IMG/VR virus record: IMGVR_UViG_3300018495_000106
Strand: one strand, 5' to 3'
Length of the DNA stretch: 64,000 nucleotides
DNA from: a virus
The translations under genes and the position numbers were made by a program. Within the stretch, counting starts at the first letter, position 1; every line of letters begins with the position of its first letter. Under the pieces are notes generated by a model. The model saw nothing but the letters and a program-made list of their open reading frames with translations, was not told the origin of the DNA and searched no databases. Shown one piece after another: positions 10,518 through 11,522 of this stretch.

Positions 10518-11522
10518 ATGCCTACAGTAAGTCGCGGCGATAGACTATTATACAGCGCGCAAATTAAAAATTGGTATGATAGACTTAATTCTGTAATTAC
10601 GAAATATGGCGGAGGTATGGCTACGATTGCTGTTCCTTCTGCTACTCCCGCAAAAGCCTCCGATGTAAATAATCTTGTGGCTAAATTAAATGCCATGAAA
10701 GCAGATAGTTACCTGGGTTCAAATGCAAACTTATACCCAACATATTCTACTGTTGGAATAGGTACAATCATTTATGCGAATACGGGTAACCAGTTAGAAG
10801 CAGTTATTGCTAAACTGGAAACTATTAAGTGTCGTAACTCTTATACTCACAGTAACCAGAATCATTCTAATGGAACAAACAGCCAAACTTGTTCTAATAG
10901 TGCTCATAGCAATAATAACTCTAACACATCAAACAGTAATACTTGTTCCAATAGTACAAATAGTAACACTTGTACAAACGGCTCTAATAGCAACACTTGT
11001 TCCAATGGTAGCCATAGTAACACCTGTTCTAATGGTACTCATGGAAATACAAATAGCCACGGCTATAATAGCAATACCAATAGCAATAGTTCTCATGGTC
11101 AATCTTGTTCTAATGGTAGCAACTCCTACGGTGCACGTGGCAATGGATTGAAGCATCATAGTAGTAGATTCTATACTGACCAATGTTCTTATCAGTATAA
11201 ATCTAATGGTACTTGTGGAACTAATGGTAGTCACAGTAATACTTGTTCAAACGGAACCAATGGTAATACCAATAGTAATGGATATAACAGTAATACTTGT
11301 TCTAACAGTGCTCATAGCCAGGGTTGTTCTAATAGTGCGCACAGCCAGAGCAGAAGCCATAGTACACATGGTCAGACTTGTTCTAATAGTGCTCACAGCC
11401 AAACAAATTCCAATGTCACTAACTCACAGACCTGTTCAAACAGTGCTCATAGTAACACTAATTCTCACCAGGCTAAATCTAATGTAACGGTTATTGATAT
11501 TATGAATAGTTATAAACCATAA
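10518..11522 (+). CDS. repetitive Cys/Ser/Asn/His-rich precursor-like peptide (about 115-aa leader plus about 17 NTCSN(S/G)xHS-type repeats)
   Basis: RBS AAGGAGG; low-complexity core with Cys every 7-8 residues; sits between YcaO and radical SAM genes. Confidence 0.6.
   Translation: MPTVSRGDRLLYSAQIKNWYDRLNSVITKYGGGMATIAVPSATPAKASDVNNLVAKLNAMKADSYLGSNANLYPTYSTVGIGTIIYANTGNQLEAVIAKLETIKCRNSYTHSNQNHSNGTNSQTCSNSAHSNNNSNTSNSNTCSNSTNSNTCTNGSNSNTCSNGSHSNTCSNGTHGNTNSHGYNSNTNSNSSHGQSCSNGSNSYGARGNGLKHHSSRFYTDQCSYQYKSNGTCGTNGSHSNTCSNGTNGNTNSNGYNSNTCSNSAHSQGCSNSAHSQSRSHSTHGQTCSNSAHSQTNSNVTNSQTCSNSAHSNTNSHQAKSNVTVIDIMNSYKP
10830..11480 (+). repeat. imperfect tandem DNA repeats (about 21-24-nt units) coding for the peptide repeats
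   Basis: recurring CTTGTTCTAATAGTGCTCATAGC-like units; alternate-frame ORFs on both strands are repeat artefacts. Confidence 0.7.

Follow-up and report, generated by a model that had tools for sequence, protein, structure and literature searches.

The closest described systems are those in which radical S-adenosylmethionine (SAM) enzymes mature a ribosomal peptide or protein, and the SPASM-type motif mainly marks peptide or protein maturases. In sactipeptides such as subtilosin A and thurincin H, SPASM radical SAM enzymes form nested Cys-to-backbone thioethers that close a hairpin, QhpD makes intraprotein Cys-Asp/Glu thioethers, and the Hxs system comprises two radical SAM enzymes and a further protein. 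[quoted passage not shown] Here we describe a repeat-protein gene in a 64,000-nucleotide viral sequence, IMG/VR record IMGVR_UViG_3300018495_000106 (the whole stretch analysed, referred to as the window), whose product joins a folded N-terminal domain to two length-matched arms of short repeats and which is encoded beside two radical SAM enzymes and a small conserved protein. The anatomy of this protein, its family, the synteny of its locus and the arm-length rule are well established. We give about an even chance to the reading that the product is a protein-sized, RiPP-like hairpin substrate modified, and possibly stapled, by both radical SAM enzymes. The gene and its parts are as follows.

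10518..11522, + strand: repeat-protein gene, 334 amino acids plus stop codon, enclosing the stretch first flagged (10830-11480)
10518..10838, + strand: non-repetitive N-terminal domain, residues 1-107, ending K-C105-R-N107
10890..11132, + strand: repeat arm 1, residues 125-205, nine in-register units of nine residues
11133..11243, + strand: central non-repetitive patch, residues 206-242, ARGNGLKHHSSRFYTDQC223SYQYKSNGTCGTNGSHSNT
11244..11486, + strand: repeat arm 2, residues 243-323, nine in-register units of nine residues
11487..11519, + strand: conserved C-terminal tail TVIDIMNSYKP, family logo T-x-I-D-I-[T/L/R]-[N/C]-x-x-[T/A/S]-[T/S]-K

C105 and N107 are invariant across the repeat-protein family, and the central patch, rich in aromatic and basic residues, holds C223 and the subclade-conserved motif [ND]-Q-C-x-[YFW]. 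An AlphaFold model built on a 15-sequence alignment shows a confident three-helix domain for residues 9-108 (predicted local distance difference test (pLDDT) ~80-95) and low-confidence coil, predicted disordered, for residues 109-334 (pLDDT ~30). Structural comparison of the N-domain model with the PDB and BFVD gave no significant neighbour, and the N-domain profile has no match among PDB sequences; a GGDEF match to this domain (E = 0.0024, below cut-off) was weak and was dismissed. No model in Pfam, NCBIfam or PHROGs matches the repeat protein above threshold, and exact look-ups of the window repeat protein and small protein returned no record, close relatives being reached via P0160.

The repeats form 18 in-register nine-residue units in two blocks of nine, with the consensus [C/N]-S-N-[S/G]-[A/S/T]-[H/N]-[S/G]-[N/Q]-T. 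Position 1 of the unit is Cys eleven times, Asn six times and Arg once, running C,N,C,C,C,C,N,N,C in arm 1 and C,N,C,C,R,C,N,C,N in arm 2. Successive Cys residues lie 9, 10, 18, 20, 26 or 27 residues apart; 9 of the 12 gaps in the repeat region are multiples of nine, a count equalled by none of 20,000 shuffles, and C-S-N occurs 10 times, with no shuffle among 20,000 reaching 11. Past residue 104, the 219 residues include 56 Ser, 50 Asn, 26 Thr, 19 Gly, 17 His and 14 Cys. The sequence-only reading that first drew attention to this stretch had described about 17 repeats of the form Cys-x6-7 in an N/S/T/H/G-rich background. The background and the recurrence of Cys are borne out by composition and periodicity; the count and spacing are revised, since the gene has 14 Cys (13 in the repeat part plus the invariant C105) and the unit is nine residues long, giving C-x8 where Cys units adjoin.

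The underlying DNA is much diverged, as that reading had also held. Tandem Repeats Finder detects just two 27-nucleotide arrays, at 10930-11038 (73% matches) and 11297-11401 (62%), mean pairwise nucleotide identity among the 18 units is 56%, and Ser at unit position 2 is encoded by both the TCN and AGY codon families. Judged from these sequence features, the DNA of the repeat units is old. Because the units are diverged and mix two Ser codon families, selection probably acts on the peptide pattern, as first suggested, rather than recent slippage having produced it. A non-coding or slippage-generated open tandem repeat could be suspected from the low-complexity DNA and the several long open reading frames (ORFs) in other frames, but the flagged stretch lies entirely within ORF 10518-11522 (+) and in its frame, an AGGAGG-type ribosome-binding site stands ~9 nucleotides 5' of the ATG, the N-domain is conserved in 277 clusters and modelled with confidence, conserved residues are kept by synonymous codons, and indels between close relatives are whole multiples of 27 nucleotides. 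On this sequence evidence an artefact of that kind is excluded, and the claim that the stretch is coding stands. The three alternate-frame ORFs (10807-11151 +, 10929-11234 - and 11206-11487 +), which had been set aside as repeat artefacts, are V/I/L/M/T-rich translations of the repeats and, with equivalents overlying the repeats of the relative L007, are best put down to repeat composition.

The lengths of the two arms are tightly coupled. Arm 1 is measured from the Cys of C-R-N to the central Cys, and arm 2 from the central Cys to the tail Asp. Among 14 distinct members of the window subclade, which are 224-437 residues long, fall into ten length classes and carry Cys, Trp, Tyr or polar units with periods of 7, 8 or 9, arm 1 ranges from 63 to 168 residues and arm 2 from 47 to 155, and the difference is 15.5 +/- 1.1 residues (Pearson r = 0.9998, n = 14). 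For example, the arms measure 118/104 in the window and 136/122 in a close relative, each arm being 18 residues longer. In a second subclade the arms are built of unlike units (a 10-mer with Cys-Cys versus a 9-mer with a single Cys) and one unit has been gained in both; because these arms carry different units, gene conversion between arms cannot account for the coupling. A crude detector of the longest non-repetitive internal stretch, applied to 51 non-redundant members of all subclades, gives an arm correlation of r = 0.84 and places the patch at 45-55% of the span in 32 of 51 (null mean 7.4, maximum 18 in 10,000 trials). Matched arms around a patch suggest a chain that folds back on itself in register. 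If the window arms are laid in mirror register, Cys faces Cys at 53/38, 62/47, 80/65 and 98/83 residues from C223, and Asn faces Asn at 89/74 and 44/29. Such mirror pairing of like units in the window is only suggestive.

The repeat protein belongs to a large family defined by its N-domain. A word-indexed search yielded 14 homologues, and an N-domain profile, searched against 1.84 billion representatives, recovered 277 clusters (50% identity) at E <= 1e-3 and 124 at E <= 1e-10; the invariant residues of this domain are Y20, D63, C105 and N107. In the 105 near-full-length members, C-[RK]-N falls at about residue 100-108 and the I-D-I tail is kept, with the extended logo [N/C/K]-S-N-G-T-x-I-D-I-[T/L/R]-[N/C]-x-x-[T/A/S]-[T/S]-K. 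The window ORF shows all of the family features, namely a 130-bit match to the N-domain profile, C105 and N107, an I-D-I-x-[N/C] tail and a downstream radical SAM pair. Between these landmarks lie 61-300 residues of repeats (Asn 17%, Ser 15%, Gly 13%, Thr 12%) whose unit is lineage-specific; the dominant period is 5 residues in 40 of the 105 members, 10 residues in 16 and 9 residues in 16, and true CXXX runs are found in members P0007 and L015. A divergent branch (L018, L019, L026, L063, L064, L066 and L073) encodes proteins of 210 residues with T-T-Y-S-type units, lacks C-R-N and I-D-I, and has three small ORFs between the repeat gene and the first radical SAM gene.

The residue that recurs in the arms is freely exchanged within this family. 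Cys residues in the repeat part number 0-42 per member (median 5, zero in four of the 105), and His residues 0-29. Members whose first radical SAM enzyme is 55-58% identical to that of the window carry Trp units (GWSQGANGN, GSWSQGV), Tyr units (YGDSNARNS, GNGYSQGAY) or a polar unit (NGNSNTADR). Exchange is seen even in the nearest relative (L089/L090), whose enzymes are 74-81% identical to those of the window and whose 370-residue repeat protein is 87% identical in the N-domain, 84% in the central patch and 66% in the repeat blocks, with indels of 9, 9 and 18 residues (whole multiples of 27 nucleotides). Three window Cys units are Asn in this relative and one Arg unit is Cys, and Cys spacing in both proteins is mostly in multiples of nine. 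These swaps and the 0-42 range indicate that the repeat Cys is exchangeable at the level of the unit and dispensable across the family. The sequence-only reading had expected the Cys positions to be conserved and had named two outcomes that would tell against it: free variation of Cys among relatives, which the Cys/Asn swaps and the family-wide range bear out in part, and a non-coding region, which this is not. Conservation of Cys is therefore given up, as Trp, Tyr or Asn can occupy the position.

The same variability bears on a metal-binding array, in which Cys at unit position 1 and His at position 6 would bind Zn or Fe and perhaps zip the arms together. The 13 Cys and 17 His of the window repeats do lie in regular register, and Cys units mostly stand opposite Cys units across the proposed hairpin. 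Metal-stabilized phage fibres also exist: in the phage T4 long tail fibre, His-x-His motifs at the tip bind a row of iron ions. However, neither Cys nor His is conserved in the family, Cys gives way to Asn between close relatives, sister proteins whose enzymes are similar have Trp, Tyr or neither, and such an array leaves the universal radical SAM pair unexplained. A general metal-binding role, raised as an equal option when the stretch was first read, is thus unsupported and quite unlikely; a lineage-specific Cys/His metal 'zipper' between the arms is possible.

The repeat gene is the second of a co-oriented, tightly packed and operon-like run of genes, set out below with the elements that flank it.

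8549..8580, + strand: terminator-like hairpin with a 14-bp stem, closing the upstream gene and likely marking the left boundary of the module transcription unit
8656..8689, + strand: two overlapping sigma-70-like promoter matches (11/12), 19-24 nucleotides before the YcaO start; a consensus match only
8708..10513, + strand: YcaO-domain protein, 601 amino acids, with a 4-nucleotide gap to the repeat gene
11522 to 11538, + strand: 15-nucleotide gap between the repeat gene and radical SAM 1
11538..12914, + strand: radical SAM enzyme 1, 458 amino acids, with an 8-nucleotide overlap with radical SAM 2
12907..14358, + strand: radical SAM enzyme 2, 483 amino acids, with a 26-nucleotide overlap with the small-protein gene
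14333..14728, + strand: small conserved partner protein, 131 amino acids, with an invariant Trp4 and a 60-nucleotide gap to the next gene
14789..15739, + strand: accessory Cys-rich protein, 316 amino acids, followed by tRNA-Gly at 15833

Promoter-like sites are no more numerous in the region than expected by chance, and the two best are those just 5' of YcaO.

Related loci retain the core of this module. We gathered 88 loci from IMG/VR, JGI and ENA metagenomes, Logan assemblies and GTDB genomes with radical SAM 1 as the probe, so that the sample is unbiased toward the repeat gene. A family-type gene lies 5' of radical SAM 1 in all 67 loci that have at least 1.5 kb upstream (54 recognized by the N-domain hidden Markov model, 13 divergent or fused by read-through), and the order repeat gene, radical SAM 1, radical SAM 2, small protein (the last in most loci) recurs in phage, metagenome and metagenome-assembled genome (MAG) contigs. 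Most of the long related contigs measure 130-194 kb and carry a viral classification; the four 'genome' matches come from MAGs, their contigs being binned as Bacilli, Faecalibacterium, Clostridium and Lachnospiraceae, and two records bear the title human gut metagenome. Accessory genes, counted in 24 non-redundant, well-flanked loci, are more variable: YcaO is present in 12 (once downstream) and a glycosyltransferase of family 2 or 8 (GT2 or GT8) lies 3' of the module in 14. No protease or exporter is conserved in the module across loci. A single radical SAM pair has two or three repeat genes around it in some loci (L046, 5082-11056; L085), and the 193-kb contig Ga0247611_10000066 (L051, L053) has two complete modules, one with a 484-residue SNGxx-pentad protein and without YcaO, the other with a 257-residue protein and with YcaO. 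Queries with the locus, the N-domain and each radical SAM enzyme, at nucleotide and protein level, matched nothing in 50,697 GenBank phages, and no description of the module was found in the full-text literature searched.

Because this RiPP-like synteny is kept in every checkable related locus, with YcaO 4 nucleotides upstream in the window and two radical SAM genes and the small gene downstream, calling the repeat protein a precursor or substrate, as the sequence-only reading did, is reasonable. Its further claim, that the protein is a multi-core RiPP precursor in which each Cys unit is a separate core that is modified and cut out, fits less well. A repetitive core does follow a leader-like domain beside YcaO and radical SAM genes, and an M28/M20-like peptidase gene (5570-6625) lies 4 kb upstream. 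However, the units abut without recognition or cleavage spacers, the peptidase was found in the window alone among the loci scanned at that stage, no exporter was identified in the conserved module, and unit sequence and period are lineage-specific, some members having no repeat Cys. The conserved central patch, the conserved tail and the matched arms also make singly released units improbable, since these features would then not be under selection. Together, contiguous units, bracketing conserved parts and the lack of a conserved protease or exporter favour one intact product, and we consider a multi-core precursor very unlikely.

The two radical SAM enzymes are distantly related to each other. 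Radical SAM 1 has C23-x3-C27-x2-C30 and five further family-invariant Cys; radical SAM 2 has C57-x3-C61-x2-C64 and a C-x2-C-x5-C-x3-C SPASM-type motif (C391, C394, C400, C404) that is invariant in relatives. Their library similarities are solely to peptide- or protein-modifying twitch/SPASM maturases, SCIFF included. The best match of radical SAM 1 is the N_Twi_rSAM twitch-domain model (55.3 versus a cut-off of 170), with weak matches to twitch-domain radical SAM, CcpM, GggB, PapB, HxsB and CXXX-repeat maturase models, and radical SAM 2 weakly matches QhpD, PapB and the SPASM domain. Neither enzyme reaches the curated cut-off for CcpM, CXXX-repeat, CefB, HxsB/HxsC, PapB, QhpD, SCIFF or anSME: scores against cut-offs are 35.9/500 for CcpM, 27.6/350 for the CXXX-repeat maturase, 16.3/600 for CefB and 31.4/370 for HxsB, and the best scores for other named maturase families are 31.8/340, 29.3/453, 21.6/425 and 25/349. 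Both enzymes match phrog_1802, and the sole PDB sequence match of radical SAM 2 is the SCIFF maturase CteB (5wgg, E = 0.019). A conserved N-domain ahead of a hypervariable remainder fits the leader-and-core layout of radical SAM RiPPs. No RiPP recognition element (RRE) was detected, and both radical SAM enzymes lack an N-terminal extension of the length needed for one.

The other proteins of the module are less uniform across loci or less readily placed. YcaO has a full-length domain (PF02624, 106.9 bits versus 25.7; TIGR00702, 106.8 versus 75.65), and its nearest model is E. coli-type (117 bits versus 700) rather than SagD/TOMM (TIGR03604, 34.9 versus 219); none of the ten neighbouring proteins scanned is an E1-like/Ocin-ThiF partner, TfuA or FMN dehydrogenase. 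The small protein and the 316-residue protein match nothing above threshold in Pfam, NCBIfam or PHROGs. Homologues of the 316-residue protein occur in several related loci, often as tandem paralogue pairs of 280-316 residues (L004, 12052-13826; L009, 11070-12851), and one such paralogue matches Peptidase_U32 weakly, below threshold (E = 0.0034). Some U32 proteins are anaerobic, Fe-S-dependent hydroxylases acting as heterodimers, and by analogy the 316-residue type may offer a lead for a tailoring hydroxylase. Three candidate chemistries were not adopted. A triceptide-like radical SAM target, aromatic/Cys-x-Asn, is not supported, because S-N can be preceded by C, H, W, N, R, K or T and such residues are absent from some members; N-glycosylation was dropped because N-x-S/T sequons are not enriched, whether or not GT2 is in the locus; and action of YcaO on the repeat Cys was set aside as a weak trend, with precursors of 1.2% Cys that have YcaO and of 8.9% Cys that do not.

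We propose that the chain would fold as a long hairpin with the central patch at its tip, C-R-N and the tail meeting at the base beside the N-domain. The repeat protein would be the co-encoded substrate of the twitch-like and SPASM-type radical SAM enzymes, with the small protein assisting, and the N-domain is proposed to be a large, leader-like docking or recognition element that also forms the base of the hairpin. The radical SAM pair may modify the protein covalently, most plausibly by stapling the hairpin with cross-links of thioether or other type; actual stapling is put forward tentatively and is, in our judgement, somewhat doubtful. As the arm residue changes under similar enzymes, these may target C-R-N, the central patch or the tail, or be promiscuous; C105, which is invariant, the central Cys, and Asp or Ile of the tail are candidate constant targets. 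Packing between the arms would in that case come from the arm residues, as a Cys/His, aromatic or Asn ladder, and in the window lineage YcaO might, speculatively, add an ATP-dependent backbone or Cys/Ser/Thr modification such as an azoline or thioamide. The product would be kept in one piece rather than cut into many peptides.

The main alternative to this modified hairpin is an unmodified low-complexity structural or tether protein, such as a virion fibre, decoration or glycosylated stalk, with the radical SAM enzymes acting on a sugar, a nucleotide or another compound. The predicted disorder of the repeats is consistent with it, as are the GT2 (in some cases GT8) genes after the module in 14 of 24 loci, the position of the module near lysis and tail-fibre-like genes in some relatives, and the twitch-domain model as best match of radical SAM 1, since the twitch-domain group includes the sugar-modifying BtrN. 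Against these stand the tight, invariant gene order in all 67 checkable loci, the SPASM-type motif, which typically marks peptide or protein maturases, the lack of a glycosyltransferase in the window module and sequons that are not enriched. We regard a tether of this kind as unlikely.

Several observations count against the hairpin substrate itself. The AlphaFold model, built on only 15 sequences, shows no hairpin and gives the arms a pLDDT of ~30. The mirror register has two mismatches in the window, and five arm-2 Cys units of the relative face Asn or His; window unit types match at 7 of 9 positions in mirror order and 6 of 9 in direct order, which does not discriminate, and the mirror phase fits the offset between C-R-N and I-D-I within one residue in 7 of 10 informative members. 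Similar enzymes (55-58% identity) serve repeats with Cys, Trp, Tyr or none of these. Pfam Radical_SAM scores are 19.9 and 21 bits, under the gathering score of 29.5, and all NCBIfam scores of both enzymes are far under the family cut-offs. For the small protein, Pfam and PDB give no match and the 12-sequence model reaches a pLDDT of 55, so that it is not established as an RRE. The association of YcaO with Cys is slight (Mann-Whitney p = 0.06 for fraction and 0.03 for count, uncorrected for phylogeny). Finally, we infer the enzyme-substrate relation from synteny and analogy, and the hairpin, the stapling chemistry and the biological role are inferred in turn from the features above.

The timing of expression is suggested by the genetic code of relatives. 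In many of them TAG encodes Gln, with up to 18 in-frame TAG codons in a repeat gene and 10-11 in YcaO or radical SAM genes, and a preprint (10.1101/2021.08.26.457843) proposes that recoding regulates how late-stage and lytic genes are translated. By this analogy the module is probably expressed late in infection. In the window itself, + strand ORFs of at least 150 amino acids end in TAA in 34 cases, TGA in 6 and TAG in none, TAG read-through mostly extends N-termini, and no suppressor tRNA is among the 37 tRNA genes. In other loci, signal-peptide adhesin-like proteins (SpaA and pAdhesive_15 hints; Thr-Pro linkers) lie a few kb 3' of the module (L003, 19571-21107; L007, 12538-15770), and holin, SH3 and endolysin genes lie just 5' of it (L003 and L001).

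The window looks like a very large phage. It encodes 37 tRNA genes, a sigma-70 factor, an RNA ligase, NAMPT, PhoH and a Thg1-like enzyme, and its small protein is identical on 28 contigs, the longest 220 kb. The tRNA array (15833-31170, +) follows right after the module and covers nearly all amino acids, with four tRNA-Met and several duplicates. At its start a 117-residue cREC_REC (cyclic-phosphate processing receiver) domain protein (16151-16504, E = 2.7e-18) is encoded; with RNA ligase and Thg1-like genes further along, this suggests a theme of RNA repair or tRNA maintenance. Upstream of the module, a 474-residue ORF (2878-4302) matches Na+/sulfate symporter and citrate transporter families a few kb 5', and the M28/M20-like peptidase (5570-6625, phrog_34186) is followed by a 470-residue protein with 22 Cys (6628-8040; phrog_18912, unknown function), with a paralogue at 718-2319. 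Homologues of the 470-residue protein and of a 106-residue protein (8208-8528) lie ~5 kb upstream of the module in locus L009. Elsewhere, an 830-residue ORF (48313-50805, +) matches major-vault-protein shoulder and repeat domains, which is unusual in a phage, and is mirrored by a 765-residue antisense ORF (48244-50541, -). Near-full-length antisense ORFs also overlie 721-2190, 53701-55275 and 59139-60809, which is odd at 42% GC.

Were the enzyme-substrate link true, the family would be a large, virus-encoded, radical-SAM-modified one, with RiPP-like chemistry on protein-sized substrates in lytic-type megaphages from anaerobic gut communities. The arm-length rule is a rare structural clue from sequence alone; it predicts a stapled hairpin of tunable length and nominates C105, C223, D327 and unit position 1 for mutagenesis. 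The radical SAM pair, lying under every curated cut-off, may carry new chemistry, a hypervariable, protease-resistant, length-tunable scaffold would interest peptide engineers, and the module may point to an unrecognized late-stage or virion-associated phage function. A broader and conjectural reading, possible though we would not expect it to hold in full, is that these proteins are an unrecognized protein-sized, radical-SAM-matured hairpin class in large uncultivated gut/rumen-type phages: the base would be closed between the C-R-N Cys and I-D-I, twitch and SPASM enzymes would do the stapling, tailoring by YcaO, GT2 or U32-like proteins would be optional, and the products would be giant sactipeptide-like late fibres whose hypervariable, length-matched arms diversify rapidly, as Cys, Trp, Tyr or polar ladders, under host or environment selection.

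Comparison with known systems places the module among several of them. Sactipeptides, ranthipeptides and SCIFF peptides (AlbA, ThnB, CteB, PapB) and QhpD/QhpC likewise have a Cys-bearing ribosomal product beside a SPASM-type radical SAM enzyme, and the hairpin symmetry of the window protein recalls the nested Cys-to-acceptor bridges of sactipeptides. However, the proposed substrate here is 200-480 residues long with a folded N-domain of ~100 residues, not a 40-60-residue peptide, two distinct radical SAM enzymes and a small protein are encoded by a large phage, and the repeat Cys is often dispensable. The repeat-peptide systems of Haft (HxsABCD, CXXX-repeat, CefA/CefB, CcpM) similarly combine short-period repeats with radical SAM/SPASM maturases; they differ in that the period is 9 in the window and most commonly 5 in its family, scores fall below cut-off, and the substrate has no NCBIfam or Pfam model. 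Proteusin/NHLP and Nif11 RiPPs also set a folded N-terminal region of ~100 residues before a variable region, whereas the window family matches them in neither sequence nor fold and has a tail and a central patch. In common with YcaO-dependent RiPPs, a full-length YcaO lies 4 nucleotides 5' of a Cys/Ser/Thr-rich substrate, but this YcaO is E. coli-type, no E1, TfuA or dehydrogenase was among the proteins scanned nearby, and YcaO is present in half of related loci.

Likenesses outside radical SAM chemistry are looser. Tenebrio beta-helix antifreeze proteins, with the repeat TCTxSxxCxxAx, RTX beta-rolls and pentapeptide repeats share Thr-Cys-Ser-rich short repeats, a nine-residue unit (RTX) or a five-residue period, but the window protein has no Pfam repeat match, no Gly-Gly-x-Gly-x-Asp or central Leu/Phe, and no solenoid in the AlphaFold model. 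Ser-rich repeat proteins and glycocins resemble the family in their Ser/Thr/Asn-rich repeats and in the GT2/GT8 genes that follow the module in most relatives; unlike them, the window module has no glycosyltransferase, its sequons are not enriched, and its radical SAM pair has no counterpart there. For four traits no described counterpart was found: the two-armed, length-matched, protein-size design, the combination of two different radical SAM enzymes and a small partner protein, an occurrence limited to large uncultivated phages and the free exchange of the arm residue. Although its sequence scores place it in none of the named families examined, the module would appear to work like a repeat-substrate radical SAM/SPASM RiPP system.

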